Of a stretch of DNA of 64,000 bases, positions 1 through 61,735 are shown one piece after another; within the stretch, counting starts at the first letter, position 1, and each line of letters starts with the position of its first letter. The stretch lies in the NCBI GenBank assembly GCA_963842525.1, contig CAWJGT010000003.1, positions 608,001 to 672,000 of the forward strand, written 5' to 3'. A program made the position numbers and the translations under genes. The notes beneath the pieces were generated by a model. It was not told the origin of the DNA and ran no database searches. It worked only from the letters and a program-made list of their open reading frames with translations. The stretch comes from an uncultured Holophagales bacterium. Lineage in GTDB: Bacteria > Acidobacteriota > Thermoanaerobaculia > Multivoradales > UBA5704.

Positions 1-18315
<18,315 letters not shown>

Positions 18316-25533: not shown

Positions 25534-25594
25534 CAGTAACGCCGCTGCCCCTCACCGGCTGCGTCAGCAGTCCGGTGCAGGGGCCGAGTGAGCC
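25534..25594 (-). other. attC site (R'' mutated to GGCTCAC)
   Basis: Minus strand GGCTCAC...GCACCGGACTGC-TGAC-GCAGCCGGTGAG...GTTACTG hairpin with an extrahelical base. Confidence 0.75.
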
Positions 25595-25678
25595 GTTTGT
25601 CTTGAAATGTCCTCGACCTTAACTTGCACCCTGCGATTTAGCGCCCGCTTTGTCACCATCTTATCTATGTAGGGTCTG

Positions 25679-26635
25679 TCAGACTGCTCTGCCACATCTG
25701 AAGCTGCACTCAAACCACACAGGCGATGAGTCCTTGGCAATTACATAGATTGCTGCTGTCACCTCTAGCTGTGCTGCGGAAAACAAGAGCACTAGCGAAT
25801 TGGTCTCGAAGACAGCCTTTGCAAAGGGTGAAAGCTTTACTGTCCTCGGATTTCTCGGATTACAGATCGAGTGTCTTAAAACCCAATCGTAATCACCTAC
25901 ATGAACCCTTTCGGGGTGCTCTACATAGGAGAGGAGGTGCTTGTTGATCTCGGGCCCGATGTCGTTGACAACCCAAGAGAGAATACCCACATCAAGAGTC
26001 TCTGCGGTCACCAATCCAATATTATCGACTGCCACGTGGACCTCGACGTTGCTCTTGGGCTCCCTCAACGAGGGCGGTGGCTGCTCGAAGGAGACAGCGG
26101 CATCAAGGGTAGGTTGCTGCTTTCTGCCAAGAATGAGATCGGACAACAAGAAGTCGGGCGCCTGTAGGGTAGACTGATTGAGCCTCAAGAAGTACTTGAG
26201 CCGCCCTGCCTCTACACAAGGGACAAGGGCCGGCGCTCTCCTCACCGCAGTTACCACAACAGGCCCAGCAGGATAATCAACAACGTGTATCCGGGGTAAA
26301 GGTGAAAGGAAGGGAGCCATATCGTGTAAATGCCCCTCCACCCACTTATCCAGGGATTCATTACCCGTTTGCAGACACGCTGAGATTTTTCTGGGCGGCT
26401 CGGAAACACCGACGATGAGTACTCCTCCTTCACTGTTGGCGAAGCCACTTATTGCTTGACGGATGGCTTTGACTGCCTCCTTACTGTTGCCCTTGTTAGT
26501 AATCTTCCCATCCTTATACTCTAGATGCTGATCCTCTTCTTGGTGGATTTCAACGAACTTCTCCAGGGTGGAACCGGAAAATTTGTAGCCACTCAGCAGG
26601 GCCTCCATGGCTTCCTGGGAATCCGTAAACGGCAT
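25679..26635 (-). CDS. Schlafen/AlbA_2-domain protein (gene cassette)
   Basis: EEDQHLEYKDG and AISGFANSEGGVLIVGVSE motifs; lower GC; flanked by attC sites. Confidence 0.8.
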   Translation of the reverse strand: MPFTDSQEAMEALLSGYKFSGSTLEKFVEIHQEEDQHLEYKDGKITNKGNSKEAVKAIRQAISGFANSEGGVLIVGVSEPPRKISACLQTGNESLDKWVEGHLHDMAPFLSPLPRIHVVDYPAGPVVVTAVRRAPALVPCVEAGRLKYFLRLNQSTLQAPDFLLSDLILGRKQQPTLDAAVSFEQPPPSLREPKSNVEVHVAVDNIGLVTAETLDVGILSWVVNDIGPEINKHLLSYVEHPERVHVGDYDWVLRHSICNPRNPRTVKLSPFAKAVFETNSLVLLFSAAQLEVTAAIYVIAKDSSPVWFECSFRCGRAV

Positions 26636-26653
26636 CTTAGAACGTCCCTATTC

Positions 26654-26712
26654 GGCTAACAATCAAAAGCTCACCGGCGACGCCAGTCGTCCGGTGAAGC
26701 GTGGGGTTATGC
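26654..26712 (-). other. attC site (59 bp)
   Basis: GCATAAC CCCAC GCTTCACCGGACGAC TGGC GTCGCCGGTGAGC TTTTGATT GTTAGCC; the upstream gene stop TAA lies within R''. Confidence 0.9.
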
Positions 26713-27379
26713 GGGCCGCCCTGGTTGGGAGCGGTTCGCGATTAAGGTGAGAATTGCCTTCATGAACTCCTGCACTGCGTCAATCCAAGGCTCTACTTCT
26801 CCCGCAGTGATAGCTTCGACTCCCTCGCTGGCATCCCTTTGAGGTGAAACTCTGTCGGCTCGATGGACGATCTGATGGCGACGCCTAATTAACTCGTCAA
26901 GCTCGGTGAATGTGTGACGAACCACGGCGGCGTCGATATTTAGACCCGCCAGAACGGTACAGATTTGGGTTGTGTCGTTGTAGGTTGTCGTCAGAAGATG
27001 CTCCTGTACCGACCTCTGGATCAGCTCCAGGACAGTTTTATCTCTATGAGCAGCCAATTTTCCAAGGAAAAACTTTTCCGGTCGACCAGATCCGCCAGAA
27101 CCAGCGATAGGAACACTGTTTGAGCGTTGTTTCGTCAGAGAAAGGGAGCAATATCATGGCGATCGAGCGAAGAAAATCTTCCAGAGTAGCGTGCACTAAC
27201 ACCACCGCTGACCTAATGATATCAGAGAAAGTATCGACAGGTTCTTGCTCGCCGCTTCGGTTGAGCAACTTCCGATAAAGTGCAATGAGCACCTTGGCTC
27301 GTGCAAGATTCTCGCTGTGCCTATCGACTTGAGTCCGTATGAACCTGATAAGTTCACGATAACTGGAAAACGCCTCCAT
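26707..27379 (-). CDS. HEPN-domain protein (RiboL-PSP-HEPN-like; gene cassette; frameshift near 27100)
   Basis: DIIRSAVVLVHATLEDFLRS and RRHQIVH (Rx4H) in two frames; ATG at 27379 after the cassette crossover at 27404. Confidence 0.75.
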
Positions 27380-27397
27380 AAAGTCCCTACTTTCACC

Positions 27398-27430
27398 GCA
27401 TAACCTCATCATGAACTTCTACCCATCCCG
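27398..27430 (-). other. Putative attI-like first crossover (G/TTATGC at 27404)
   Basis: Exact complement of the first cassette's R'' (GCATAAC); no attC hairpin seen upstream. Confidence 0.6.
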
Positions 27431-35750: not shown

Positions 35751-35804
35751 CTCGCGACGAAGGGAACTGTGGTTCTCTCGCAGCTCCTCTGCTGGCGGCG
35801 CTTC

Positions 35805-41145: not shown

Positions 41146-41261
41146 GTCATGGCCGGGGCATACATACTATAGCATTCTTACCTGTCGCCAGCATCGCGCG
41201 TCAGGTTGGGTCCAAACCCCGTCGACCCGCGACGGCGGTAAACAGACACCACGGGAATTTG

Positions 41262-41923: not shown

Positions 41924-41985
41924 ACGTGAAGCTCCTCAGTCTTCATCATAGTGCATGCGTTTCGCAGTAGCAAACAGCGCAAGGA

Positions 41986-42669
41986 CTACGAGGTGAGGGC
42001 CCGCCGCCGCAGGTCCCGGTTGCGGCGCCGCTCCGCCTCCTTCCGTGTCCGGCTCGCCGCCCAGGAGCAGATGGGGCAGACGTCCAGGTCGTGGTAGAGG
42101 GCCGGGCAATATTCACGGCCAAAGTAGATGATCTGGAGGTGGGCCTTTCCCCAGGTCTCCTCGGGGAAGACCTTCTTGAGGTCTTTCTCGTTCCTCTCGA
42201 CGCTCTTGCCGTTCGATAGGCCCCAGCGGGCGGCCAGCCGGTGGATGTGGGTATCCACTGCAAATGCGGGGAGCCCGAAGGCCTGGTTGAGGACCACCGA
42301 GGCGGTCTTGTGGCCGACCCCGGGCAGCCTCTCGAGCTCTTCGAGCGTCCGCGGCACCTGCCCGCCGTGCTCGGCCACCAGGATTTCCGAGAGGCGCTTC
42401 AGGTTCTTCGCCTTCCCACCGGAGAGGCCGATCCTGCGGATCAGCGACTGGATCTCGACGGCCTCCAGGGCCGCCATCTGCTGCGGGGTCGAGGCGCGGG
42501 CGAAGAGGTCCGGCGTCACCTGGTTGACCAGTTTGTCCGTGGTCTGAGCCGAAAGGACCACGGCCACCAGGAGCGTGAAGGGATCTCGGTGGTCGAGGGG
42601 GATGTCGACCTCCGGGTACAGCTCGTCCAGGATCGCAAGGATGCGCCGCGCCTTCTCCCGCTTCGTCAT
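41986..42669 (-). CDS. nth: Endonuclease III
   Basis: LLVAVVLSAQTTD, LPGVGHKTA, AVDTHIHR, C-terminal Cys cluster. Confidence 0.95.
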   Translation of the reverse strand: MTKREKARRILAILDELYPEVDIPLDHRDPFTLLVAVVLSAQTTDKLVNQVTPDLFARASTPQQMAALEAVEIQSLIRRIGLSGGKAKNLKRLSEILVAEHGGQVPRTLEELERLPGVGHKTASVVLNQAFGLPAFAVDTHIHRLAARWGLSNGKSVERNEKDLKKVFPEETWGKAHLQIIYFGREYCPALYHDLDVCPICSWAASRTRKEAERRRNRDLRRRALTS

Positions 42670-42724
42670 GGCGGCGCACTTTTATCACATCCGGGGAGAT
42701 TCGTCGCTTGAAGCGTTACGTACT

Positions 42725-42961
42725 TTACCTCTTTGGTGCCGCAAAGGGATCCTCGACGTGAGCTGCGGCCTGGGCGGCGGTCAGCTTGCCCTTGCGCGTC
42801 GTCGAGGCGAAAAATTCGCAGAGCGTTTGCAGGGTCAAAAAACAGTCGCCCAGGGCCGCTTGCCGCACGATTTCCCGCGCCCTCTCCTGCTGCTCTCCGG
42901 CATCCGCGTCGACCGTATAGAACAGGATGTTGGAATCGAGACTGAGTCGCTCAACGCTCAT
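42725..42961 (-). pseudogene. Truncated PIN-domain toxin
   Basis: LDSNILFY and QTLCEFF present; ends after about 78 aa without the C-terminal acidic motifs. Confidence 0.7.
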
Positions 42962-43208
42962 GCAGCTCATCCCGCGAAGGGGCTCGGCCGCCGAGGTGGT
43001 GGCTCTGGTTGAGGAGGCGTTCCAATGCGGCTTCCTGCGCCGCGCTTAGAGACCGCTCCTGCCGGGGCAATGGAGAGAGAAGCGCCACGGGTTTGCCGCG
43101 TCGGGTAATGACGATCCGCTCTCCGGCCTCCGCGGCCTTCACATAGCGGGTTAGATTTTGATTGACTTCCCGCAGGCTCACTCTTTGTTCCATGAGATCC
43201 TCCAGCAA
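42951..43208 (-). CDS. Phd/YefM antitoxin
   Basis: VSLRE...AGERIVITRRGKPVALL. Confidence 0.9.
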   Translation of the reverse strand: MLEDLMEQRVSLREVNQNLTRYVKAAEAGERIVITRRGKPVALLSPLPRQERSLSAAQEAALERLLNQSHHLGGRAPSRDELHER

Positions 43209-43417
43209 CGGGCAATTGTAGCACGTAGAACATCGGAGAACCTCGAAGGGGAGCCCGCTGTGCTTTGAGCAGATCCTCCCGGCTTGGCCCTGGCCGTGTT
43301 ACACTCCTATGTCATTCCATCCGCCCGGCACGCTGCACGGCTCGGCCCAGGCCCGACGCGAAGCGCGAGTTGCACAATCAGACCATGACGATCACCACCC
43401 TGGTGGAGCGCTGATCC

Positions 43418-44719
43418 ATGAAGGGCAGGCACAGTCTCCTGGCGCGGCAGATCCGCAGTCACTTCGGGAGCGAGGACGCGGTGCCCGAGCCCTGCCGCTC
43501 CTTGCTCGACGCGGTCGATGCCGCCTACCGCCAGTGGGACGCCGACCGCGCGATGCTCGAGCGCTCCATGGAGCTGAGCTCCGAAGAGCTGATGCAGGCA
43601 AACGCGGCCCTGCGGCAGTCGCTGTCGCTCCTCCAGGCCACCCTCGAATCCACGGCCGACGGCCTCCTGGTGGTCGACCTCCAGGGCCGGATCGTCACCT
43701 TCAACCGGCGGTTCGCCGAGATGTGGCAGATCCCGGACGAGCTGTTGCAGTCCGGGGAGGACGAAAAAGCGATCGCCTTCGTTCTCGACCAACTCGCGAA
43801 ACCCGAGGTGTTCGTCAACAGGGTCCGGGAGCTCTACGCGCAGCCCGATGCGGAAAGCCAGGACGTCCTGGAATTCAAGGATGGCCGGGTCTTTGAGCGC
43901 TATTCGCAGCCGCAGCGGATCGGCGGCCAGGGCGTGGGCCGGGTCTGGAGCTTCCGGGACGTGACCGAGAGACGGCGCGCCGAGGAGGAGCGGGCGCGGC
44001 TGCAGGTCATGGGCGCCCTGGGCCATCTCGTCGGCGGGCTCGCCCACGAGGTGCGCAACCCGCTGTTCGCCATCTCGGCCACCCTCGACGCCATGCTGTC
44101 GACCCTCGACGTCTCGCCGCAGGACGAGGAGCTGCGCCGGACCCTCGACTATCTCCGCGAGCCGACCACCCGGCTGACCGAGCTGATGTCCGAGCTGCTC
44201 GAGTACGGCAAGCCGTTCGGCGGACATCTGTGCCGGGGCTCGCTCGCGCAGGTCATCTGCCAGGCGGTCACGGACTGCCAGGCCCTGGCTGATGCCCGGG
44301 GGGTCCACCTCACCACCCGGCTCGGCGATCCGGAGCTGGCCGTCGGCATGATCCGCCCGCGCCTCGTGACCGCGCTGACCAACCTGATCCAGAACGCCAT
44401 CCAGCACACTCCGCGAGGGGGGACGGTGCTCGTCGAAATGGTCGAGGTCGTGGAAGGCGACCGCGCCTGGGTCCGTTGCACGTTCCAGGACTCCGGCACA
44501 GGCTTCCGGGAGGAAGACCTCGCGAAGATCTTCGAGCCCTTCTTCACCCGCCGGAAGGGCGGCACCGGGCTGGGGCTGTCGATCGTCCAGCGGATCGCCG
44601 AAGAGCAGAGAGGCTGCATCCGGGCGGGAAACCGTCCCGAGGGCGGCGCGATCCTGACCCTCGATCTCCCGCCGTGGAGAGAGCCGGCCGGCTCCTCAGG
44701 CGTCCTGCAAGAGGGCTGA
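43418..44719 (+). CDS. PAS sensor histidine kinase
   Basis: PAS domain (ESTADGLLVVD), AHEVRNPL, NLIQNA, DSGTG, GTGLGL. Confidence 0.95.
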   Translation: MKGRHSLLARQIRSHFGSEDAVPEPCRSLLDAVDAAYRQWDADRAMLERSMELSSEELMQANAALRQSLSLLQATLESTADGLLVVDLQGRIVTFNRRFAEMWQIPDELLQSGEDEKAIAFVLDQLAKPEVFVNRVRELYAQPDAESQDVLEFKDGRVFERYSQPQRIGGQGVGRVWSFRDVTERRRAEEERARLQVMGALGHLVGGLAHEVRNPLFAISATLDAMLSTLDVSPQDEELRRTLDYLREPTTRLTELMSELLEYGKPFGGHLCRGSLAQVICQAVTDCQALADARGVHLTTRLGDPELAVGMIRPRLVTALTNLIQNAIQHTPRGGTVLVEMVEVVEGDRAWVRCTFQDSGTGFREEDLAKIFEPFFTRRKGGTGLGLSIVQRIAEEQRGCIRAGNRPEGGAILTLDLPPWREPAGSSGVLQEG

Positions 44720-46282
44720 GAGCCTGTGAAAAAATCCCGGTAAGCGGTTCGTAGCGGAGCGTATCCATGAGATACTTACTGCATGAGCGACACTCTGTTC
44801 CCTATCCTGCGCCGGAAGTGAGTGCTGAGCCGCAAAGCGAAAGGGGTTCCTCGTTTGGTGGTTCTAACGGTCGCAGATGGAACTGCGCGTGGACCTGGAA
44901 AGTCTTCTGCCGCCGGATCACGTTGCGCGTGCGTCTGGGAGTTCGTGGAGTCCTGGATCTGAGCCCTCTGTACGCGGAGGTGCAATCGGTGGAGGGGGGT
45001 GCGGCGTCAGCCATCGACCCGCGGATCTACATGGCCTTATGGTTGTACGCACGATTGAGGGCGTGGGCAGCGCGCGAGCCTGGAGCGTCTGACGCTTCAA
45101 CACGATGCGTATCGGTGGATCTTGGGGGGTGTATCGGTGAACGACCACTCTTTGTCGGACTTTCGGGTGCAGCACGAGGAATTTCTCGATCAGGTGCTGA
45201 CGCAGAGCGTGGCGGTGTTGATGGAGCAGAAGCTGGTGACACTGAACCGTGTGTCGCAGGACGGCATCCGTGTGCGTGCCAGTGCCGGTGCGGCCTCGTT
45301 TCGGCGTCAATCGAGTCTGGAGCGCTGTCTACAAGAGGCACAGGAGCAGGTGAACGCCTGCGCGAGGAGCTGGAGAAAGACCCGGAGGCGACGAATCGTC
45401 GTCAGACGGCAGCCCGGCAGCGCGCGGCGGAGGACCGCCAGCATCGGGTCAAGGCGGCGTTGGCGCAGATGGCAGAGGTTGCGGCCAAGAAGCCAGCGGA
45501 GAAGAAAGACCAGGCGCGGGTGTCGACGACGGATGCCGAGGCACGGGTGATGAAGATGGGGGATGGAGGATTTCGTCCAGCGTACAACGGTCAGTTTTCG
45601 GTCGACGCCGAGACGCAGATCGTGGTGGGAGTGGATGTCAGCAACAGCGGCAGCGATCAGGGTCAGTTGGTGCCGATGCTGGAGCAACTGGAAGAGCGCT
45701 ATGAAGTGATTCCGCCAGAGAGCTTGGTCGATGGTGGTTTTGCCGGTTTGAAAGATATCGAGAAGGCCAGCGAGTTGGGCACCACGGTCTATGCGCCGGT
45801 CGCCAAGCCGAAGGACAAGACGCGCGATCCGTATGTGCCTCTGTCGACCGATTCACCGGCAATCGCGCAGTGGCGCCAACGCATGGGCACACCGGAGGCC
45901 AAAGAGATCTACAAGCAGCGGGCGTCGAGCGTGGAATGTGTCAACGCTCTGGCTCGCAACCGCGGGCTGCAACGTCTGTTAGTGCGAGGCCTGCACAAGG
46001 CCCGAGCGGTGCTGCTTTGGTTCGCCATTGCCCACAACCTGATGCGCACCCTCTCGCTGGGCGCGGGCTGCGTCGCATCGGCATAAAGGTCAGGGCCTCG
46101 CGGCGAAAAGGAGGGTAATTCCCCTGTCCAAGTCTGTTTTCGACCGCTTGTCGCTGCCTTAGCTCGCGTCGGATACGATGTGGCCCCTGACCGCGCACGC
46201 TTTAGGATACCTCACATCTATTATGCGCCTTGTTACCGCCCTCCGCCTTCCAATCTCGGACCCGCGATTCCTTCACAGCCTC
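44720..46282 (+). mobile_element. IS1182-family insertion sequence
   Basis: Imperfect IRs GAGCCTGTGAAAAAATC and GATTCCTTCACAGCCTC; TGA direct repeats at 44717-44719 and 46283-46285. Confidence 0.85.
44783..46086 (+). CDS. IS1182-family transposase (frameshifted)
   Basis: DLESLLPPDH, QDGIRVRASAG, STTDAEARVMK, PAYNGQ, VDGGF, YKQRASSVE. Confidence 0.85.
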
Positions 46283-46657
46283 TGAGACCACCTCGGCGAT
46301 GGTCGGCAGCGGCTGGGGTTTGTGCAGGACGGCGTGCACGCCGCGCCGCCGGGCTTCCAGCTCCACCTCGGACGAGCCATAGGCGGTCAGGAGGATCACC
46401 TTGGTGTCCGGCGCGATCCGTCGCACGGCGGAGATGATCTCCAGCCCTTCCGTGCCGGAGCTGCCGCTGAGCCGCAGGTCGGCGATCACCACGGCATAGT
46501 GCTCTCGGGCCAGCAGCTCCTCCGCCTCTTCCTGGACCCGGGCCGTATCGACCGTAAAGCCCTGCCGGCCGAAGAACAGCTCGAGGGCGAAGAGGATCGC
46601 CGGTTCGTCCTCGACGATGAGGAGCCGCTTCTGCATCGCGTCGTCCTCCATGCTCAA
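46202..46657 (-). CDS. Single-domain response regulator; C-terminus altered by the IS
   Basis: LLIVEDE, ADLRL, LLTAYG, HKP. Confidence 0.9.
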   Translation of the reverse strand: MSMEDDAMQKRLLIVEDEPAILFALELFFGRQGFTVDTARVQEEAEELLAREHYAVVIADLRLSGSSGTEGLEIISAVRRIAPDTKVILLTAYGSSEVELEARRRGVHAVLHKPQPLPTIAEVVSEAVKESRVRDWKAEGGNKAHNRCEVS

Positions 46658-52047: not shown

Positions 52048-53626
52048 ATGCCGCGCTTCTTCAACACCGCCGGTCCCTGCAATCCGGCCGATCACTACAT
52101 ACTGCCGCCGGAGCGTCGCCTGCCGGATCTGCGGGAGCTGATCGAGCGCAAGCTCTACTTCACCCTCCATGCGCCCCGCCAGTCGGGGAAGACCACCTGC
52201 CTGGAGACCATGGCGCGTCGCCTTGACAGCCGAAGGGAGGTATGCGCCGCAATGCCTCGCAAGCTGCGAGACCGGCCAGACGGCGGGGAGCGATGTGGAG
52301 CGTGGGGTCGGAGCGGTGCTGCAGCTCGACCGAGCGGCGGGCGGCGGAGCTTCCGCCGGATCTTCGGCCTGAGCCGCTCGCAGGCTATGCGGCTATTGAG
52401 GCGGAGAGCCGCTTGGTGGCCTATCTCGACGCCTGGTGCCAGAGACCGCCCGGCCGGTACGTGCTGTTCCTCGACGAGATCGATGCACTGCGTGACGAGT
52501 CGCTCTTGTCGGTGCTGCGCCAGCTCCGGTCCGGGTATTCGACCCGGCCGCCCGCGTTCCCGCAGTCGGTGGCGCTTGATCGGTCTGCGGGACGTCCGGG
52601 ATTACCGCGTCCGGCTCCGTCCGGAAGCCGAGAGCCTCGGGACCTCTTCGCCGTTCAACATCAAGGTCCGCTCCCTCACCCTCGCCAACTTCTCGCAGGA
52701 CGAGGTCGCCGAGCTCTATGGCCAGCACACCGCGGAGACCGGACAGGTTTTCACGCCCGAGGCGGTCGCCCTTGCGTGGGAGTTGACCCGCGGTCAGCCG
52801 TGGCTGGTCAATGCCCTGGCCGCCGAAGATGGTGGACCGTCTGGTGCGCGACCGGGCGGTTGCGGTCGAGGCTCGGCACGTCGAGCAGCGCCAAGGAGAT
52901 CCTGATCGAGCGCCGCGATACGCACCTCGACTCGTTGGTTGACCGGCTGCGCGAGCTGCGCGTGCGGCGCGTCCTCGAGCCGATCCTGGCAGGGGAGCTG
53001 CTCTCTCCCGACCTGTTGGAGGACGACATCCAGTTCGTGAAGGATCTGGGGCTGGTCGTATCCGGCCCGGCGGGCTTGGAGATCGCCAACCCGATCTACC
53101 GCGAGGTCATCCCCCGTGCCCTGGCCTGGGTCGTCCAGGAGTCGCTGCCGGTGCCCCGGGCGCCGTTCATTGCGCCGGACGGGACCTTGCGGATCGATGC
53201 CGCTCCTTGACGAGTTTCACCGAATTCTGGTGCCAGCACGCCGAGTTTTTCCTGGAGCGTCAGCCCTATTCCGAGGCGGCGGCACAGCTCGTCTTCATGG
53301 CATACCTGCAGCGGATCGTCAACGGCGGAGGTTTCATCGACCGGGAGTATGGGGTGGGCCGCGGGAGGATCGACCTCTGTGTCCGCTGGCCGCATCCCGG
53401 CGGCCTTCAGGTCTGGGCGGCCGAGCTCAAGGTCTGGAGGAATGGCCGTCCCGATCCTCTCTCGGAGGGTCTCAAGCAACTCACGGCCTACCTGGCTCAT
53501 CTGGGCCTCGATTCCGGCGCTCTGATCCTCTTCGACGGCCGGCCCGCCACCCCACCCATCCCGGAGCGCTGTGTGCGGACTGAGGTCGAGCACGAGGGCC
53601 GCAGGATCACCATCCTGCGGCTGTAA
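52048..53626 (+). CDS. P-loop ATPase with C-terminal PD-(D/E)XK-like domain (frameshifted)
   Basis: MPRFFNTAGP, HAPRQSGKTT, LDEIDAL, SPFNIK, TRGQPWLVN, REYGVGRGRIDL, AELK. Confidence 0.85.
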
Positions 53627-53649
53627 GTGTGGGATTCCCCGCTCCCGAG

Positions 53650-53726
53650 CCTCAGGTGCCAGGCACTTATTCTCCTCAGGTGCCAGGCATTTATTCTGGG
53701 GGATCTGCACTTATTCTGGGGGATCT
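53650..53726. repeat. Tandem copies of the GGCACYTATTC terminal motif
   Basis: 24-bp duplicate CCTCAGGTGCCAGGCAYTTATTCT (53650-53697) and 20-bp duplicate GCAYTTATTCTGGGGGATCT (53687-53726). Confidence 0.85.
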
Positions 53727-53760
53727 AGACACGGATGGCGGGAACAGGTATTCTCAGTTC

Positions 53761-54069
53761 ATGAGTGCCCGTCCCGCCAGTGCTCCTGGTCAGCCGATCC
53801 TTCTGATCGTCGAGGATCTCGAAGACCCGCGGTTTTCCGTCTCCTCGCCGCTCCGGGTCGAAGCCTACTGGGAGCCCGAAGGGGTGACGGTCCACCATCC
53901 GGAGTCTGACGTTTTCGGCTATGGCAAGGACGAGGCCGAGGCCTTGGACGATTTTCGCGCGGCGCTCGCCGAACTGTTCGTCACCCTGGACAATGACCGC
54001 GTCTCTCTCGGCCCAGCCCTTCAGGGTGTCTTGCGGGTCCTCGATTTCCACCTTCACAAGCGTTCGTGA
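53761..54069 (+). CDS. HicB-like protein
   Basis: VFGYGKDEAEALDDFRAAL, typical of the HicB N-terminal fold. Confidence 0.6.
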   Translation: MSARPASAPGQPILLIVEDLEDPRFSVSSPLRVEAYWEPEGVTVHHPESDVFGYGKDEAEALDDFRAALAELFVTLDNDRVSLGPALQGVLRVLDFHLHKRS

Positions 54070-54076
54070 TCCGCCT

Positions 54077-54355
54077 GTGTCGATCAGCGCCGAGGTCCTG
54101 GACCGAGCCTGGGGGAAGGTGGGGATGTCGGTGCAGGATCGGGGTGTAGACCGATGGGCCTATCTGTTCGTGGATGGCAGGCGAGTCATCGCGACGCGGC
54201 GGTCGAGAGGCTCGGGCAAGATCCCGGGTCAGGTTCCGCACCTGATCCGTCAGCAGATGAAGCTGAACGAGGAGCAATTTCGTGCCTTGGTCGATTGCCC
54301 TTTGACCCGCGAGGGCTATATCCAGATCCTTCGCGACAAGGGCCTTCTCGGGTAG
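54077..54355 (+). CDS. HicA-like protein
   Basis: IRQQMKLNEEQFRALVDCPLTREGY C-terminus; adjacent to the HicB-like gene. Confidence 0.6.
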   Translation: MSISAEVLDRAWGKVGMSVQDRGVDRWAYLFVDGRRVIATRRSRGSGKIPGQVPHLIRQQMKLNEEQFRALVDCPLTREGYIQILRDKGLLG

Positions 54356-54530: not shown

Positions 54531-54778
54531 GGCCGCATCCCGGCGGCCTTCAGGTTTGGGCGGCCGAGTTGAAGGTCTGGAGGAATGGCCGTCCCGATCC
54601 TCTCTCGGAGGGTCTCAAGCAACTCACGGCCTACCTGGCTCATCTGGGCCTCGATTCCGGCGCTCTGATCCTCTTCGACGGCCGGCCCGCCACCCCACCC
54701 ATCCCGGAGCGCTGTGTGCGGACTGAGGTCGAGCACGAGGGCCGCAGGATCACCGTCCTGCGGCTGTAGGTGTGGGAT
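54531..54778 (+). repeat. Direct-repeat copy of the ATPase gene 3' end (partner 53388-53635)
   Basis: 248 bp, 5 mismatches by eye. Confidence 0.95.
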
Positions 54779-54790
54779 AGCCGCGGGGCC

Positions 54791-55152
54791 GCGGACAAGC
54801 TCAAGGATGGCGATCGGAATGCGCGGTTCCCGCCAGGGAGCTTTCCGCTTCATCTGGCCTTTGTCAGCGATCAGCCGCCCCGTGATTTCATTCCCGTGCC
54901 TGCTGGGTAGCCGAACCGGCTGCCAATCAACTCTCAGAAGCTCTCTCCCTTCTCCTGCGTGGCGACAGAGTTGTGCCCAGCCTACAGCCAGTCGCCGTCA
55001 GATCCCCAAAGAGTGCGGGAAAAATCGCTCTGATCCTCCTCGGGTGCGTCCAAGAGGCTCGCTCAGGCCCCTCGGGAGGATGAATACAGGCTGGCCGCAG
55101 GCCCCGCGGGCCTCCCATACTCAAGGTTCCCCAAGAATCCCCAGGCACCTAT
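54791..55152 (+). mobile_element. Second, shorter Y1 transposase 3' remnant with tail
   Basis: Encodes ADKLKDGDRNARFPPGSFPLHLAFVSDQ; alignable to 25016-25372; ends CCAAGAATCCCCAGGCACCTAT. Confidence 0.8.
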
Positions 55153-55245
55153 GGGTGGAAAACGTTTTCCTTGCTAGCCCGATTCGAGGGCACAGGAATC
55201 AATGGGGGATCCCAAGTTATTGAGATCCCAAATAAAGCATTCAAT

Positions 55246-56385
55246 CTATCGATTTGGAATCTGCAAGCTAAACCGTTTACGCGTGCCGGGCTCGATCGCG
55301 CCGAGATGGATCGTGCGGATCTCGTTGTAGGGCGGAACTAGTCCTTCACCGCCGGGGCCTTCGTAGTGATAACGCAGTTGGAGATCTTGCGCCGCAGTTG
55401 CGGCAGGGAGGGCGAAGCCGTTTCCACGCAGTTCGTTCCAAGCCTTCGTGTTAAACAGTTGCGCACTACCTTCGCGCGAGCCGAAATAGCCGACGGGCTC
55501 ACCCGCCCAAAGCTCGAACTGCAGCGTGTACCATGCTTGCTCGTAGTCGCCGCTGAGATCGAAGGCGAGAAACGCGATGTCGGGGTGCGGATTCTCAACA
55601 AGCGAGAAATCCAGTTTGTATTCGCCGCCTCCCGCTATCGAAAAGATAAGCTGACTCGCCGACGGATAGCCGGCGTTGCCATCGTTCGCGTTCTTCCAGG
55701 CGTTGCAAATGACGATCTTGAGACGCGGATCCCCTTTGAATTCCCAGGTTGGAATGCGGCCGTCGCGATCGGTTTCGCGTGCGAGCATTTCGGCCAGTCG
55801 CAACTCGTACTCCCAATTCATCACCGCGCCGCAGAGCACCAATGCCCCTTGGAGCGACCCGCCATTGTCGTCCTTCACCTCGACGTCAATGCGCCATTCC
55901 TCAGCCGTGTCGAGCGGACCTTCGCCGCCGGGCGGGCGCGGGAGAACCACGGTCGTGGTGACCAGAGAACCTGCGAGCAATGCTGTGATGATCTTTAGCC
56001 AAGAGTTGATGGCCGACCAAGTGCCGCTCACCAGTGCCGCAACAAAGAGAGCGTTCAAGGCCCAGGCGGCCGGGGTGAATGCCAGCCAATGGTTTTCGAA
56101 AACGATGGTGCCGCCGAGGGCCGCCCACAGTGCGCTCAAGGACAGAAGGACAAGCGACACGCTCACCCGCTGCTGCTTGCGATAGAGTGCGGCGGCGAGG
56201 ATTGCAGTGACCGCGATGACGAGAATGACGGCGGCGCCTGCAGTGAGCGAGGCTGCGAAAACCGAGACGGCCGAACCCACGAAAAAGATCAGGAGTCCAA
56301 TACCCACGAAGAAAAGCAGCACGACGCCCGCGCCCTCATTGGGGTCGTGACCGATTTTGCCTTTGCTGCTATCCAAGTTTCGCAT
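55246..56385 (-). CDS. Membrane protein with soluble C-terminal domain (gene cassette)
   Basis: About 5 TM helices; starts just after attC 56413-56485. Confidence 0.8.
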   Translation of the reverse strand: MRNLDSSKGKIGHDPNEGAGVVLLFFVGIGLLIFFVGSAVSVFAASLTAGAAVILVIAVTAILAAALYRKQQRVSVSLVLLSLSALWAALGGTIVFENHWLAFTPAAWALNALFVAALVSGTWSAINSWLKIITALLAGSLVTTTVVLPRPPGGEGPLDTAEEWRIDVEVKDDNGGSLQGALVLCGAVMNWEYELRLAEMLARETDRDGRIPTWEFKGDPRLKIVICNAWKNANDGNAGYPSASQLIFSIAGGGEYKLDFSLVENPHPDIAFLAFDLSGDYEQAWYTLQFELWAGEPVGYFGSREGSAQLFNTKAWNELRGNGFALPAATAAQDLQLRYHYEGPGGEGLVPPYNEIRTIHLGAIEPGTRKRFSLQIPNR

Positions 56386-56412
56386 GTGTTTGAGGTTGTC
56401 GATCGGCGCGAC

Positions 56413-56485
56413 GGCGAACGCTCAGTAGATGAGCGGCGGAACCGCGCTTTTGCGGTTTCCGTCCGCTCGACTGCTGGGGTTCGCC
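56413..56485 (-). other. attC site (73 bp)
   Basis: GGCGAAC...GAGCGGACGGAAACCGC...GCGGTTCCGCCGCTC...GTTCGCC hairpin with extrahelical A. Confidence 0.85.
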
Positions 56486-56509
56486 GCTGCCATTCTCCAT
56501 TTAGGCCTG

Positions 56510-57154
56510 CTATAGCGTGGCCTTTGGTAAGTGCTTCTCCAAGGCCGCCTTTATCGAGCCCGTGATCTCCGCATACAGTCTATCTGCCTCAGAGTAGAAG
56601 GAAGCAAGTCGCTCGATCGAGGTATTATAGGTATGTTCATCCATGGTTTCCTGACCGAGGCTGAGCCTTTCTGGAGGTCGCGTGATCCGGTCGACCAAAA
56701 CGGAAGCATCCTGGAGTTTTCTCTTGAAACGATGGAGCATGTTGAACACAGACTCATCGACAAATGCGCGGTATTTATAAAGATTCTCCGTGAGAAGGTA
56801 GAGAGCAGGATCAAAGGCTTTAAGAGTATTGCGATTCCTCTCCTCCTTAAACCAGAGCAGCGTCTTCCATTCAGCGTGATCAAGGGGAAAAATCGCTAGA
56901 ACATCACGACACGCGTTGCGCAGGCGATAGACGATCTCTAAAATTTCCGGATAAATCGTATTCCGCCGTTCAAGTACTGCGAGAGCTTGGTGCTTCTCGA
57001 TCTCTATAGCCATCTTGGCCCTCTCCTCGATCTCCTTGAATCGCAGATCCATCTTCTTCGTGAGCCAAGTCTTGAGCCAATAGGCAACCCCACCCCCAAT
57101 AGTCGAAATCAAGGCGGCGTTAAGGAGTAAATCAGAAACGATAGAGATTGGCAA
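56510..57154 (-). CDS. Hypothetical protein, N-terminal TM plus helical domain (gene cassette)
   Basis: 214-aa low-GC ORF between two attC sites. Confidence 0.8.
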   Translation of the reverse strand: MPISIVSDLLLNAALISTIGGGVAYWLKTWLTKKMDLRFKEIEERAKMAIEIEKHQALAVLERRNTIYPEILEIVYRLRNACRDVLAIFPLDHAEWKTLLWFKEERNRNTLKAFDPALYLLTENLYKYRAFVDESVFNMLHRFKRKLQDASVLVDRITRPPERLSLGQETMDEHTYNTSIERLASFYSEADRLYAEITGSIKAALEKHLPKATL

Positions 57155-57194
57155 TAGTATTTCCCTTCGTGTCTTATCGGATCTGGCTGTGGAC

Positions 57195-57254
57195 GGCGAA
57201 CGTCTTGGGCGTTCACCGGGGGCGCAGCCATCCGGTGCAACGCCCGGGTTGGCC
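57195..57254 (-). other. attC site (60 bp)
   Basis: GGCCAAC CCGGGCG TTGCACCGGATGG...CCCCGGTGAA CGCCCAAGAC GTTCGCC. Confidence 0.85.
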
Positions 57255-57431
57255 GCCGAATCGCCTTCGCTCGGAACCCGCCGCGCTGGCCACTTCGCCT
57301 TGCTCTGGCCCCCGAACGTCTTCGGTACAGTTCAATATGTACATGCGATCTTCGCCCTTGATGAACTAGAAAAATTGTACATCAGAAGCATGGGCAGGCA
57401 AAGAGCCAAGACGGAGATCGAGGCAACCAAC

Positions 57432-57580
57432 GTGCCCCCATCCCCATCGGGGCTCGCGCCCCTCGGCCGCGCCGTCGCCCCTACAGGGCTTGGAGAAATG
57501 GGGACGCTGCCTACCTGGGGTCGCCGCGCCCCCGGCGCTCTGACCCCAGGCTCTATGCCGACGCCCCTTCGGGGCTTTGC
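57432..57580. repeat. REP-like palindrome cluster
   Basis: GCCCCTACAGGGC, CCTGGGGTC...GACCCCAGG and GCCCCTTCGGGGC hairpins. Confidence 0.7.
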
Positions 57581-57815
57581 AGCGTGGCAGTTTGGTGCCG
57601 GAGCGCAGCGGAGGCGCCAATTTGCGTGTCTTTCTCAGTGGAAGGACCGCGGCAAGGGGCGCAGCCTCTTGCGGACCGCGCCGCAGCAGTTCCTCAAGCA
57701 AGCAAGATATGAGTCCATGCCGATCGCTATGACGGGTCCCCGGTCCCGAGAGACCGAGGGCCAGCCCTACGCTCCGCCGACCACGGTGGCGCCGAGCTAT
57801 TACTGCCAACGAGCT

Positions 57816-58080
57816 TCAGCCGGGGTGAGGAATGTCACTGAACTCTTGGAAGAGACGCGTTAGCGCCTCCGGACCATGAACACCAGTGGAGCTCACAAAA
57901 ACCTCAACCTCGATCGAACCGTCTGACAAGAATTCGACCTCCCATCGCTCACCGGGCACGGCGATCAGCACCATAATGGCTTCGTCACGATTGTGCGCAA
58001 GCGAGTAGGAGATTTTTGGGCCTGATTGAGCTGTCCCAGAAACTCAAGAAGGTCGGGTATGAGTGGGCTCACCGCGTCAT
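57816..58080 (-). CDS. Small hypothetical cassette protein (frameshifted)
   Basis: Reads ...DLLEFLGQLNQA/KISYSLAHNRDEAIMVLIAVPGERWEVEFLSDGSIEVEVFVSS...; follows attC 58108-58169. Confidence 0.6.
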
Positions 58081-58107
58081 CCTTAGCACTCTATGCGAAC
58101 ATCCGAC

Positions 58108-58169
58108 GGCCAACACGGTCTTGCTGCTGAGCGGCGGCGTAGCCGTCCGCTCCGGCAGCGTTGTTAGAT
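58108..58169 (-). other. attC site (62 bp)
   Basis: ATCTAAC...GAGCGGACGG CTACG CCGCCGCTC...GTTGGCC; the upstream stop TAA lies in R''. Confidence 0.85.
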
Positions 58170-58766
58170 GCCTTGCAGCTGCAATTCACTCCACGCTTCC
58201 TCCAGCACTTCCTTGGGATCAGTCCCTCGCTCAATCTCCTTCACGAACAATAGACTAACGAAGTCGATGTCTGGACTTTCTCCCATCTGGACTTTGTAGG
58301 AATACGGCAAGACGTAGAGACCGTACCTAATCCTCCGGTCGCCTCTGATTGTGTGCACAGCGCCAATGACGACCGGGAGGAAATTTTTACCACTTCGTGT
58401 CTCCACAAGTGGAAATCTTCGCGCAATATAAGTTACGATTCGATTCTCGGCCTTTGAGAGATCGATATTATAGGGAAACTCTACAACCTCCGGCTCCAAG
58501 TCGAGAGAGTCTGGCCAAAGAATTTTCAGCTGCTGGAGTGCCGCATCGGATGGGTTTTGAACGCTCAGGCGAAGCAGGTTTGAGTTATTCTCAAGGCTCG
58601 CCGAGAGAATAAGCCGCTTATCAGCTTCAAGCCTTGCTTCGGCCAATTCATCGGCCGTCTTGACTCTTCGGTAGTTCAGAATCCCCACCGCGAGTGCGGC
58701 GGCCGTCACTAATAAACCGACCAGTGCTATCCAATTCTTACGGCCTCTCTCTTGACCGTTTGTCAT
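58164..58766 (-). CDS. Hypothetical protein with N-terminal TM (first cassette)
   Basis: ATG at 58766 is the first start after the crossover at 58794; low GC. Confidence 0.8.
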   Translation of the reverse strand: MTNGQERGRKNWIALVGLLVTAAALAVGILNYRRVKTADELAEARLEADKRLILSASLENNSNLLRLSVQNPSDAALQQLKILWPDSLDLEPEVVEFPYNIDLSKAENRIVTYIARRFPLVETRSGKNFLPVVIGAVHTIRGDRRIRYGLYVLPYSYKVQMGESPDIDFVSLLFVKEIERGTDPKEVLEEAWSELQLQGI

Positions 58767-58787
58767 GTGCCTGTTCTTTAGTGTGGT

Positions 58788-58820
58788 ATCTAACCTCTGC
58801 CTCACATATTCGGCGGCACC
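58788..58820 (-). other. Putative attI-like first crossover (G/TTAGAT at 58794)
   Basis: Exact complement of the first cassette's R'' (ATCTAAC). Confidence 0.6.
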
Positions 58821-58918
58821 CCGCCCGCAGGCCAATACGACACAACCTGCGGGTTGACTCCACGGTTGGTCCCAGGGTGTCGAGCGTGCAGGGTGCTTAT
58901 CCTCTTCGACTTAAGCGC

Positions 58919-58947
58919 ACTCTACACCACTTCCTAACCTGCGTCAA
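58919..58947 (-). promoter_or_regulatory. Sigma70 promoter (Pc-like)
   Basis: TTGACG (58947-58942), N17, TAGAGT (58924-58919), pointing into the cassettes. Confidence 0.7.
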
Positions 58948-59187
58948 GGCCGCCGAGGCACTTGGAGAAGCATTCTGGTCGGCCCTGCGCCTCGAAAGTC
59001 GCAACTACGTCATGCTCGACGAGCGAAGGAGGTTGGGACGATCGGGTCCTGAGCACCGCGGACGACGTCCGCCGATCTCGTCACTCACGTTGAGGGCGAC
59101 GCTGCCCGCGGCATCTTTTTTCGTCTTTCGGCGTGGCGGCGAAGCGTCCAGGAGGAACTCTCGAAGGGCTCGGAGAGGATTTGGCGG

Positions 59188-59731
59188 GCTTCCGGACGGT
59201 TCTCCAGAGCTTCCGGACGGTTCTGGGGGGGCTTCGGAAAAATTCTGGAGCACTCCAAAATTTTTTCCCAGTACTTCGGATCGGATCCGAAGCCTTCCAG
59301 AAAATTTCTGGACTACCTCGAAAGAGTTCTGGAGTACTTCCGAGGAATTCTGGAGCACTTCAAAAACTTTTTCCAGTACTTCGGATCGGATCCGAAGCCC
59401 TTCAGAAGATTTCCGGAGTACCTCGAAAAAGTTCTGAAGTACTTCCGAGGAATTCTGGAGTACTTCAAAAATTTTTCCAGTACTTCGGATCGGATCCGAA
59501 GTACTTCAGAAGATTTCCGGAGTACCTCGAAAAAGTTCTGGAGTACTTCCGAGGAATTCTGAAGTACTCCAAAAATTTTTCTCAGTACTTCGGATCGAAT
59601 CCGAAGCCTTCCAGAAAACTTCCGGAGTACCTCGAAAAAGTTCTGAAGTACTTCGGAAAGATTCCGGAGCACTCCAAATTTTTTCCGGTGCTTCGGATCG
59701 GCTGCGAAGCGTTCCGGCTCGCACCGGAAGC
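59188..59731. repeat. 21-bp palindromic tandem array (about 26 units) with 105-bp higher-order repeat
   Basis: Units such as TACTTCGGATCGGATCCGAAG recur every fifth unit. Confidence 0.95.
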
Positions 59732-59764
59732 CCTTCGCCCTCCTTGCCTGTCTTTGGGCGGGGA

Positions 59765-59797
59765 CGAAGAAAGGGGGCGCGCGGTCCGCGCGCCCCC
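59765..59797 (-). terminator. Intrinsic terminator
   Basis: GGGGGCGCGCG-GAC-CGCGCGCCCCC stem followed by TTTCTTC, 20 bp after the stop at 59817. Confidence 0.75.
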
Positions 59798-59816
59798 TGG
59801 AGTGGAGCGGCTACGA

Positions 59817-60203
59817 TTACTCAGTCGGCGGGGGAGCGGGCGATTCCGGGTCCGGCTCCTCGGGCGGCGGCGCCACCGGCCGGGGACGGCCGCGGAACGG
59901 CTTCAGCCCGAACTGGACCAGCTTTTCGCTGCGGGTGCCGAAACGCTCGCGCGCCCCCTTCCGCAGGAAGGCCGCCAGGGCGTCTCCCTCCCGAAGCGCC
60001 TGCTGCAGCTTCTGCCCGACGTCCTGCTTGGTCGCGGTCAGGGCGCTGAACTCGGCGCTCAGGCTGTTCGCCTGCCGGAGCAGGTTCTCGAGCCGGGAGC
60101 CGGGCTCTGCCAGGTACGGGAGCTCGGCCGCGTGCGAAGCCAGGGCTGCCAGGGCCTGTGCCCAGCCGTTGAGGGTGTTCAGGTACTCAGGGATCTTGGC
60201 CAT
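59817..60203 (-). CDS. Small alpha-helical hypothetical protein (128 aa), basic then Pro-rich tail
   Basis: AG-rich RBS, ATG at 60203, coiled-coil pattern, own promoter and terminator. Confidence 0.85.
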   Translation of the reverse strand: MAKIPEYLNTLNGWAQALAALASHAAELPYLAEPGSRLENLLRQANSLSAEFSALTATKQDVGQKLQQALREGDALAAFLRKGARERFGTRSEKLVQFGLKPFRGRPRPVAPPPEEPDPESPAPPPTE

Positions 60204-60267
60204 ACTGCTTTCCTTTCTCTCCTTCCGGAGATATCTCGGCGCCGGAATTGGCGCCGTGAATGTACAT

Positions 60268-60296
60268 ACGGTAGAGGGCTCTCGTCCGTTTGTCAA
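60268..60296 (-). promoter_or_regulatory. Sigma70-like promoter of the small helical gene
   Basis: TTGACA-N17-TACCGT on the minus strand; a TATAAT on the plus strand near 60330 may serve the kinase. Confidence 0.5.
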
Positions 60297-60451
60297 GAGC
60301 CATACGGACAAGAAGCCGGCATACTGTCTATAATATTCACAACTAAGAAGGGAGGTGCCCGCTGCGGTCAAGGAGCACTACGGCGCCGCGCGGCATCTCC
60401 CGCGGGTTCAGCTCCGGCAAACCGCCGAGGAGAGTATGATCCCCAGGCGAA

Positions 60452-61735
60452 ATGTCGCGCGACTTCTTCTTCCAGAGCATGCTGGACCGGTTCCGCCGCC
60501 GCCGCGTCGATCGCCGCGCCGTGCAGGAATTCAGCCGGTCCCTGGCCCTGATCGTCGACCGGGAGGCTCTGGAGGCCAGCCTTGCGGCCCGCATCCGCGA
60601 GCTCTTCGATCCGGACCGGCTGATCGTGCTCGAGCCCGATGCGGAGTCCGCGTTTCGCCCCACCCTGTCCTTCGGCCTCGAAGAGTCCGATCTGGAGAGC
60701 GCCGGCATCCCGGGCCGCGGGAAGCTCGCGCGCTGGCTGACCGTGAACGAGACCTCTTTCGTGCTCGACCGCCAGCCGGGGGTCCTCGAATTCCTCGACC
60801 CCGCGGAAAAGGACCTGTTCCGGACGCTACGCCTGCATGTGGCGGTCCCCATGATTTCCCTCAATCGCCTGACCGGCATCCTCCTGCTCGGTTTCGACCG
60901 GTCGCTGCGCAGCCTCGGCCGCGGCGACCTGGAGCTGCTGGGCCTCCTGGCGCGGCAGGCGAGCCTCGCCTTCGAGAACACCGCGCTCTACCGCGAGCAG
61001 CGCAAGCGCCTCGACCGTCTGCACCGCGCCGAGCGCCTGGCCGCGGTGGGGCAGCTCGCGGCCGGGGTGGCGCACGAGATCCGCAACCCGCTGACCGCCA
61101 TCCGCTCGACCATGCAGTACCTGCTGCAGGGGCTCGATACCTCCGAGCCGAAGCACCAATTGGTTGAGGAGCTGTTGAGCGAGGTGGACCGGATCAACAG
61201 TACCGTGGGGGGCCTGCTGAGCCTGAGCCGGACCGGCGAGCTGCGGCCGGTGGAGGTCGACCTCCTGGATCCGCTGGCCCGGGCGGTCCAGCTCCTGCGT
61301 GCCCGGGCCGGAGAGCAGGGCGTGGAGATCGCCGCCAGCCTGCCGCCGGAGCCGGTTCCAGTCCTGGGCGATGCCGGCCAGCTCAAGCAGGTGTTCCTCA
61401 ACCTGCTGTTGAACGCGGTCCAGTCCATGCCCGGCGGCGGGCAGGTGCGGGTGACGGTGGCGCCTGGCCCCCCCCGGCCCGGTACCCATCGGGAGGAATG
61501 GGCCCACGTGCGGGTCTCGGACTCCGGTCCCGGCATCCCACCTGACAAGCTCCGCCGGGTGTTCGATCCGTTCTACACCACCAAGAGCGACGGCACCGGC
61601 CTGGGGCTGGCGATCTGCCACGGCATCGTGGAGCAGCACCAGGGAGAGATCGAGGTGGAGAGCGAGGAGGGCTGCGGCACCACCGTGTCGGTCCGGCTCC
61701 CTCTCGCGGGGAGGCAACCATGGCCAGCATCCTGA
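60452..61735 (+). CDS. GAF sensor histidine kinase (NtrB-like)
   Basis: AHEIRNPL, QVFLNLLLNA, DSGPG, GTGLGL. Confidence 0.95.
   Translation: MSRDFFFQSMLDRFRRRRVDRRAVQEFSRSLALIVDREALEASLAARIRELFDPDRLIVLEPDAESAFRPTLSFGLEESDLESAGIPGRGKLARWLTVNETSFVLDRQPGVLEFLDPAEKDLFRTLRLHVAVPMISLNRLTGILLLGFDRSLRSLGRGDLELLGLLARQASLAFENTALYREQRKRLDRLHRAERLAAVGQLAAGVAHEIRNPLTAIRSTMQYLLQGLDTSEPKHQLVEELLSEVDRINSTVGGLLSLSRTGELRPVEVDLLDPLARAVQLLRARAGEQGVEIAASLPPEPVPVLGDAGQLKQVFLNLLLNAVQSMPGGGQVRVTVAPGPPRPGTHREEWAHVRVSDSGPGIPPDKLRRVFDPFYTTKSDGTGLGLAICHGIVEQHQGEIEVESEEGCGTTVSVRLPLAGRQPWPAS

Follow-up and report, generated by a model that had tools for sequence, protein, structure and literature searches.

Can a short run of genes of no known family, with no integrase beside it, be recognized as a product of integron activity, and how would such a run have come to its present place? 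This question is raised by a 64-kb stretch of an uncultured Holophagales bacterium (Acidobacteriota; GenBank assembly GCA_963842525.1, contig CAWJGT010000003.1, positions 608,001 to 672,000), hereafter called the window, in which the original prediction, made from the letters alone, placed an integrase-less array of four gene cassettes at 55246–58947. [quoted passage not shown] As argued below, the array very probably comprises three complete integron gene cassettes and a fourth gene devoid of an attC site, so the whole assembly belongs to the CALINs; it is a further example of this well-known kind, with membrane-protein genes of no known family on board. The array coincides with the third of three GC-poor islands (~24.1–28.6 kb, 35–42 kb and 55–59.7 kb) in a window with a GC content of 66.6%, its own GC content being 45–63% (except for a stretch of 66–70% in the second cassette) vs 66–75% in the flanks. 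The first island harbors another array, referred to here as the sister array.

The argument begins with the hairpins. In the account of Nivina et al. 2016 (PMC5027507), the bottom strand of an attC site carries 5'-AAC-3' in the R' box, the site is 57–141 bp long, and the L'' arm bears extrahelical bases at two points separated by a stem of 6 bp, namely position 16, where G is usual, and position 23/24, where a T is conserved; the spacers measure about 5–6 nt. The three sites of the array, attC1–attC3, form single imperfect hairpins with loops of 3–4 nt (fold z of -2.4, -3.1 and -5.8, respectively), and they agree with this account in length, hairpin form and extrahelical bases. All three start with AAC and end with GTT and display key unpaired bases at 16/17 and 24 around a stem of 6–7 bp; attC3 has a full 7-bp R box, an A–A mismatch at position 16 and a stem of 7 bp. 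The core AAC...GTT, seen on the plus strand as NNNNAAC...GTTNNNN, is common to these sites and to both sites of the sister array. On the coding strand, the NNNNAAC of each hairpin lies just past the stop codon of the preceding gene, or overlaps it, and the hairpin ends with GTTNNNN. The surplus unpaired bases all reside in the 3' arm of the plus strand; hence, the plus strand is the bottom strand, exactly as minus-strand genes require.

A geometry scan that took in all AAC...GTT pairs of the window, on either strand, retrieved exactly five sites, all of them on the plus strand, i.e., attC1–attC3 and the two sites of the sister array (26654–26712 and 25534–25601). Applied to 12 block shuffles, the scan returned nine matches in total (zero or one in each), and a single match was obtained in three unrelated loci (61.8 kb). 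In five plasmid loci bearing intI1 (102 kb), three of the eight attC sites to be expected by annotation (those of aadA1, dfrA14 and aadA2) and nothing else were found, the missed ones being the sites of IMP-1, aac(6')-IIa, estX, psp and cmlA1. Judging from these controls, the scan is specific and only moderately sensitive.

Recognition as attC was also obtained with two home-built covariance models. The first, R1, was trained on four class 1 integron sites only (aadA1, aac(6')-IIa, aadA2 and psp), with their known structure, and run over the window with filters off. Its top three matches were attC1 (17.0 bits, E 0.027), attC3 (16.5 bits, E 0.039) and the sister site 26654–26712 (14.1 bits, E 0.21), all with the ends exactly as called beforehand. 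The second model, R2, was trained on these same three sites aligned to the R1 structure. When R2 was applied to the plasmid loci (102 kb), the five best matches fell on known attC sites, i.e., those of aadA1, aac(6')-IIa, aadA2, psp and cmlA1 (E from 6e-7 to 0.0046), followed by a match at E 0.66; the cmlA1 site was found although it is in neither training set. In the window, R2 found attC2, which it had not been trained on, with exact ends (30.7 bits, E 9e-6), and gave a partial match inside 25534–25601 (E 0.083) and nothing near 55100–55246 or 58795–59150. The five sites of both arrays share the core CACCGG/GAGCGG ... GTCCGGTG/GTCCGCTC; according to Cury et al. (PMC4889954), the attC sites of one integron resemble each other more closely than they resemble those of other integrons.

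Each cassette start had also been claimed to pair with the attC site of the same cassette, and the six heptamers in question are all present on the plus strand: GTTAGAT at 58163, ATCTAAC at 58788, GTTGGCC at 57248, GGCCAAC at 58108, GTTCGCC at 56479, and GGCGAAC at 56413 and 57195. On the coding strand, the cassettes start with G|TTAGAT, G|TTGGCC and G|TTCGCC, and their own attC sites begin with ATCTAAC, GGCCAAC and GGCGAAC, respectively. The complementarity between the start and the cassette's own R'' box embraces seven of seven bases in all three cassettes, as the rule of the chimeric R' box has it, and extends to 15 of 18 bases in cassette 2. Such an exact complement of start and inverse core is the mark of the G|TT crossover: this crossover leaves the last six bases of the original R' box at the 5' end of the cassette, so that the start complements the cassette's own R''.

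Heptamer pairs by themselves are not beyond chance: five pairs spaced by 300–1500 nt occur in the region vs 2.45 +/- 1.67 in 500 shuffles, 54 of which reach five. Their position at the hairpin ends is. Two of the five pairs lie inside open reading frames (ORFs) and are due to chance, and the other three fall exactly on the R''/R' ends of independently defined hairpins. The chance of a 4-nt complement match amounts to ~0.0042 per site and to ~7e-8 for three sites, the argument from position being weaker for cassette 1, where no hairpin fixes the start. When attC1 is folded with the R' box of the excised circle, the number of R-box pairs increases from 0 to 10 and the folding energy (dG) changes from -18.6 to -22.7 kcal/mol; for attC2, it changes from -24.4 to -27.5 kcal/mol. 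The fold of attC3 remains the same because its neighbor, the fourth unit, begins with the same six bases. The claim of real cassette integration made in the original prediction has thus held under folding, under the geometry scan with its shuffle and positive controls, and under two covariance models used in both directions; the attC geometry of the hairpins (lengths, AAC/GTT ends, unpaired bases at 16/17 and 24) and the pairing of the starts were borne out along with it.

The features of the locus are collected in Table 1. The complete units measure 680–913 bp, their ORFs start 28–47 nt past the crossover, the genes reside on the minus strand, and the bottom strand of attC is the non-coding one, so that the layout is that of gene cassettes with a short 5' leader. 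Upstream of the junction of cassette 1, neither the relaxed fold scan nor the covariance models revealed an attC hairpin, and there is no recognizable attI. The promoter-like site ahead of this junction is a candidate driver of the array, judged by sequence match: it agrees with the consensus at 9 of 12 positions, and the region contains three such sites vs 1.3 +/- 1.3 in shuffled sequence, which is not beyond chance.

Table 1. Features of the cassette array, its flanks and the sister array (positions in the window; unpaired positions of attC sites are counted from the 3' end of R'' on the plus strand; TM, transmembrane).
Feature	Position	Strand	Description
Cassette 1	58114..58793	-	680 bp; holds ORF c1
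Cassette 2	57201..58113	-	913 bp; 52-aa ORF only
Cassette 3	56419..57200	-	782 bp; holds ORF c3
Fourth unit	55246..56418	-	begins TTCGCC right after attC3; holds ORF c4; without attC
attC1	58108..58169	+ (bottom strand)	62 nt, GGCCAAC...GTTAGAT; unpaired 8-10, 16, 17, 24; G16, T24
attC2	57195..57254	+ (bottom strand)	60 nt, GGCGAAC...GTTGGCC; unpaired 8, 9, 17, 24, 25; C17, T24
attC3	56413..56485	+ (bottom strand)	73 nt, GGCGAAC...GTTCGCC; unpaired 16, 24, 30; A16, T24
ORF c1	58164..58766	-	200 aa; N-terminal TM helix
52-aa ORF of cassette 2	57816..57974	-	
ORF c3	56510..57154	-	214 aa; one TM helix, then helical bundle
ORF c4	55246..56385	-	379 aa; six predicted helices, then two beta-sandwich domains
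Upstream junction	58788..58794	-	G|TTAGAT, start of cassette 1
Promoter-like site (candidate)	58919..58947	-	TTGACG-17-TAGAGT, ~125 nt upstream of the first cassette junction
Proximal flank	59153..59715		array of 21-bp units, super-period of 105 bp
Distal flank	54781..55155	+	375 bp, ~73% identical to 25008-25385; ends in CCAGGCACCTAT
Sister array	25534..27412	-	attC at 26654-26712 and 25534-25601 (plus strand as bottom strand)

The array had been described as lacking an integrase, and this description applies to the whole window. The tyrosine recombinase family PF00589 was found neither in the 59 best-scoring ORFs and 99 further ORFs of at least 110 aa at 17.5–64 kb nor, at E <= 1, in 25 stop-to-stop frames beside both arrays; in the region of 1–17.5 kb, occupied by genes for a nonribosomal peptide synthetase (NRPS), these searches covered the best-scoring frames. 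NCBIfam models detected no integrase in 27 ORFs, and tblastn of the window with IntI1 (taken from plasmid R100) yielded nothing better than E 1.3; thus, neither intI nor a remnant of it was retrieved by these three routes. The window is part of a host contig of ~2.0 Mb, elsewhere on which an intI may lie. Cury et al. 2016 (PMC4889954) define a CALIN by two or more attC sites that share a strand and are separated by less than 4 kb, without an integron-integrase. With three attC sites within 1.76 kb, all having the plus strand as the bottom strand, and no integrase, the array is a CALIN by this definition. It is not a complete integron: intI or its fragments were not found, the promoter match is at chance level, and attI has no testable consensus.

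By analogy with what is established for integrons, the plus strand of each attC site would fold into the imperfect hairpin, and an IntI-type tyrosine recombinase would bind it via the extrahelical bases and cleave between A and C of 5'-AAC-3' in the R' box. Recombination of attC with attC would release a cassette as a circle; recombination of attC with attI, or with a genomic GWT site, would reinsert it. Since there is no integrase in cis, the array is frozen unless IntI is supplied in trans from elsewhere in the genome or by an incoming element. The cassettes would be expressed by read-through from upstream, where the promoter-like site is situated. It is in this sense that we infer past insertion mediated by IntI and that the cassettes would be mobilizable at present.

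Could the hairpins instead be elements akin to repetitive extragenic palindromes (REP), or terminators, of an ordinary operon, the heptamers pairing by chance? We regard this as very improbable. The idea draws on the heptamer pairs not being rarer than chance (5 vs 2.45 expected), on tandem REP-like palindromes nearby and on the integrase not being present; it is at odds with the hairpins having no T tracts and no entry in the terminator scan, with position-specific bulges confined to one arm, with the hairpins being the top matches of the class 1 attC model and, reciprocally, retrieving class 1 attC sites, with the coincidence of heptamer pairs and hairpin ends, and with the unrelated phyletic patterns of the genes. 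A number of other observations weigh against the assignment to integron cassettes. Thus, the unpaired bases of the central spacers number 8/3, 5/2 and 1/0 vs the usual 5–6 per arm, as counted in minimum-energy folds, where the folding program pairs whatever can pair, and beyond AAC/GTT the consensus RYYYAAC/GTTRRRY is matched only in part (e.g., GGCGAAC). The thresholds of the geometry scan were fixed after the five sites had been seen. Model R1 matched attC2 only partially (9.2 bits) and did not list 25534–25601, and its scores are weak in absolute terms (E 0.03–0.2 over the window); as the alignment of R2 was fitted to the R1 structure, the independence of the reciprocal test is incomplete. 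The start of the sister array matches R'' at just five of seven bases. Finally, the fourth unit, which had been predicted to have no attC site, indeed has none after c4 by the geometry scan, the relaxed fold scan, R1 or R2, and homologues of c4 have ordinary flanks and no attC site beside them in all three of the other genomes in which the gene was located.

This fourth gene may represent a truncated cassette or a resident gene beside the insertion point, and the two origins are rated about equal, each falling somewhat short of an even chance. ORF c4 starts 34 nt past the G|TT of attC3, and the hexamer TTCGCC at the beginning of its unit equals the start of cassette 3. Besides an identical sequence, c4 has 49 homologues at 46–75% identity (the closest at 73–75%), none of them with a Pfam domain; a scan of one genome per species located c4 elsewhere in two metagenome-assembled genomes (MAGs) of Alphaproteobacteria and one MAG labelled Flavobacteriaceae, and in none of the three was a homologue of c1 or c3 found within 10 kb. 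Quite conceivably, the array is what remains of a complete chromosomal integron after the loss of intI and attI, with c4 as its fourth cassette; on this account, and with a similar degree of probability, the attC site of c4 would have been cut off when the neighboring DNA, the 375-bp distal segment, was joined. The start of the c4 unit right after attC3, identical to that of cassette 3, fits the same attC pool; c4 lies within the low-GC island; and the attC sites are alike in two arrays 30 kb apart, as described for sedentary integrons (PMC4889954). The routes to CALINs listed by Cury et al. (PMC4889954) include loss of intI and rearrangement, and attC sites at the edges are often incomplete according to these authors. 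Such a decay would have left no intI pseudogene or fragment beside either array and no partial attC detectable at 55156–55245, and it has to accommodate the c4 homologues elsewhere, which are not cassette-borne. About as plausibly, an integrase acting in trans placed three cassettes at a secondary genomic site (attG, of the GWT type) immediately upstream of a resident c4, which in that event, and on a comparable footing, would never have been a cassette. Efficient IntI-mediated insertion at GWT sites has been shown and proposed as the origin of small CALINs by Loot et al. (10.1101/2022.09.11.507474). The order of the units is what a genomic G|TT insertion predicts, i.e., three attC-bearing units obeying the R-box rule and the attC-less unit last; no attC-like or attI-like structure precedes the first junction, and the c4 homologues are stand-alone ordinary genes in three of three genomes. 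What this origin leaves to coincidence is the identity of the first six bases of the c4 unit and cassette 3 (chance ~0.004); in addition, c4 is as GC-poor as the cassettes, and a similar flank closes the sister array, where a c4-like gene is missing.

Under either origin, the cargo consists of unfamiliar genes. No family of Pfam, NCBIfam or PADLOC was found for the cargo ORFs; a PADLOC row for REase_II (E 9e-4) was discounted, as no stretch passes on its own. The DNA and proteins of "island 2" had no match in plasmid or phage collections. The TAA stop codon of c1 is situated inside the R'' box of attC1. A single homologue of the protein (48% identity) was found, along with 22 remotely related proteins (20–28%), similar in length and without a known domain. 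For c3, 28 homologues besides its own record were retrieved (the closest at 53–57% identity), with invariant motifs around 'IYPE..E.VYRLRN' and 'LTENLYKYRA...LH.FKR.LQD'. The record in its own genome (P0054, 167 aa) starts 47 residues later; the N-terminal helix is conserved in the homologues, which favors the longer form. The predicted structure of c3 (predicted local distance difference test score, pLDDT, of 89.7) displays a long helix containing the TM segment followed by a helical bundle, has no PDB neighbor at E <= 0.001, and its neighbors in the Atlas are unnamed clusters. The c4 model (pLDDT 81.6) places six helices at residues 15–147 ahead of two beta-sandwich domains, and Foldseek found only generic matches in the PDB (S-layer/SlaB, TIE, pilins and CnaB-like; TM-score ~0.2).

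Cassette 2 differs from its neighbors in that it may be non-coding apart from the 52-aa ORF. Its stretch of 66–70% GC at 57400–57800 has no family match, and the only Rfam rows obtained at E <= 1 in 54700–60500 are at chance level; hence, neither a group II intron nor any known RNA is present in the cassette. At 57299–57325, a stretch of 27 nt repeats the R'/spacer arm of attC2 with 78% identity and may be a remnant of another attC site. The original prediction of four cassettes with unrecognized genes, three of them with N-terminal TM segments, therefore needs to be split: the genes belong to no known family, fold prediction included (no PDB match at E <= 0.001 for c3, only generic ones for c4), and c1, c3 and c4 do begin with hydrophobic helices, but the complete cassettes number three, and one of these, cassette 2, contains just the 52-aa ORF.

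With low confidence, an envelope-associated accessory function, possibly phage defence, can be suggested for the cargo, in view of its TM anchors, of recent reports and of the sister array with its defence-like genes. Chromosomal cassettes have reportedly been proposed to store phage-defence genes (bioRxiv 10.1101/2024.07.02.601686 and 10.1101/2024.07.02.601719). The sister array carries a Schlafen/AlbA_2 protein gene (25679–26635, minus strand) and two overlapping ORFs, perhaps the parts of a single broken gene, at 26707–27057 (a match to HEPN profiles) and 27044–27412; the Schlafen/AlbA_2 and HEPN-like genes fit such proposals. Three membrane-anchored families join the pool of cassette-borne genes, namely c1, c3 and, if it is a cassette, c4.

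The imperfect start of the sister array makes it look older, and the intact crossover scars of the array under study imply an insertion that is recent relative to the sister array. The two share their surroundings. Arrays of 21-bp repeats, partly palindromic, are located on the promoter-proximal side of each (28172–28507 and 59153–59715). Their core TTCCGGACGGTTC has seven matches at <=1 mismatch, all within these two repeat arrays, vs 0.18 expected. Several frames are open in the repeats on both strands; an argument against coding is that one interval between units measures 104 nt rather than 105. The DNA between the repeats and the first cassettes is unrelated in the two arrays (best local alignment 20 vs a mean of 21 for shuffles). 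Distally, both arrays are followed by the 375-bp segment, made up of the 3' end of ORF 24584–25312 and ~250 bp downstream of it. This ORF (P0107) has no Pfam match even at E <= 10 and none in the plasmid collection, and the Atlas gave just a sub-threshold TnsD lead at 0.88; a possible likeness to the C-terminal tails of certain transposase-like proteins was not confirmed by any tool.

The motif CCAGGCACYTAT(TC), of the CCAGGCACCTAT type, has five plus-strand matches at <=1 mismatch (25361, 25414, 53659, 53683 and 55141) vs 0.29 expected. It occurs only at module borders, i.e., where the shared segment ends in either island and near both ends of a two-ORF insert, one edge of which has two CCAGGCACYTAT copies; a shorter copy, GGCACTTAT, is found at 54518. 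This insert (895 bp or, in another count, 1.1 kb; ORFs 53629–54069 and 53921–54355, no family match) is bracketed by a 248-bp direct duplication (98% identity; 53388–53635 and 54531–54778) corresponding to the 3' end of a gene with a PD-(D/E)XK domain. In a similar vein, the first island is bracketed by a 121-bp direct repeat (93%; 24012–24132 and 28610–28730) representing the 3' end of a Nudix hydrolase gene, which is itself frameshifted (28514–29236); the bracketing resembles the outcome of site-specific integration into a gene end. A tandem array of 19-bp palindromic units is also present in this island (24228–24397).

The shared flanks may be due to a carrier element, to an insertion hotspot common to both arrays or to a segmental duplication. 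A rather unlikely reading is that both arrays, instead of being scattered debris of an integron, are cargo of an undescribed carrier unit made up of TTCCGGACGGTTC repeats, attC cassettes and a 375-bp tail ending in CCAGGCACYTAT. If this were true, a second mobility or capture system, other than IntI, would move or nucleate cassette arrays in the lineage.

As to the wider setting, one side of the third island is occupied by a frameshifted AAA-ATPase/PD-(D/E)XK gene (52242–53626) with a small insert. On the other side, there is a small unnamed gene (59817–60203, minus strand) with a terminator hairpin at 59772–59798, adjoined by a GAF histidine kinase gene (60452–61735). Neither a tRNA gene nor an Rfam family at the gathering score was found in the window. 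The remaining GC-poor island (35000–43300) revealed no attC-like site; it comprises a HicB-like/HicA pair (35122–35558), a helicase-type gene that is divided among several ORFs and includes an MTES_1575/DUF559 endonuclease domain (35805–40798), a PIN-domain ORF (41262–41681) and a Phd/YefM antitoxin gene (42951–43208). A DDE transposase gene (DDE_Tnp_1; 44767–46086) is located between genes for a PAS histidine kinase (43418–44719) and a response regulator (46202–46657). The large NRPS locus (1–17500, minus strand) encodes condensation, adenylation and PP-binding modules; frameshifts or errors of assembly may be the reason why it is interrupted and spread over several ORFs.

Overall, the array has most in common with the CALINs as described by Cury et al.: at least two same-strand attC sites less than 4 kb apart, no integron-integrase nearby, cargo unrelated to resistance cassettes and a small size, CALINs with fewer than six attC sites making up 83% (PMC4889954). 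In contrast to the CALINs described by these authors, two arrays 30 kb apart share 21-bp repeats and a 375-bp segment here, and the terminal gene is attC-less. The similar attC sites, the mostly unnamed cargo, the cassette length of 0.7–0.9 kb and a composition foreign to the host are reminiscent of sedentary chromosomal integron arrays, whereas the lack of intI, attI and a defined Pc promoter and the presence of only three or four units are not. Cassettes outside the integron platform and an upstream junction in the form of a bare G|TT are also shared with attG-inserted cassettes and with the SALINs (single attC sites lacking integron-integrases) described in 10.1101/2022.09.11.507474; unlike those, three cassettes stand in a row rather than one, and their insertion is deduced, not observed. 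Compared with class 1 attC sites (aadA1, aadA2, aac(6')-IIa, psp and cmlA1), the fold, the unpaired bases at 16 and 23/24 and the mutual detection by models are alike, yet there is little identity outside AAC/GTT and the 'CGTC(C/G)GCT' arm, and the host is of a high-GC environmental type without resistance genes. The locus exemplifies integron cassettes cleanly, and it does so in an NRPS-bearing, high-GC genome of environmental type; it is otherwise ordinary, and only the flanks common to both arrays could open the way to something new.

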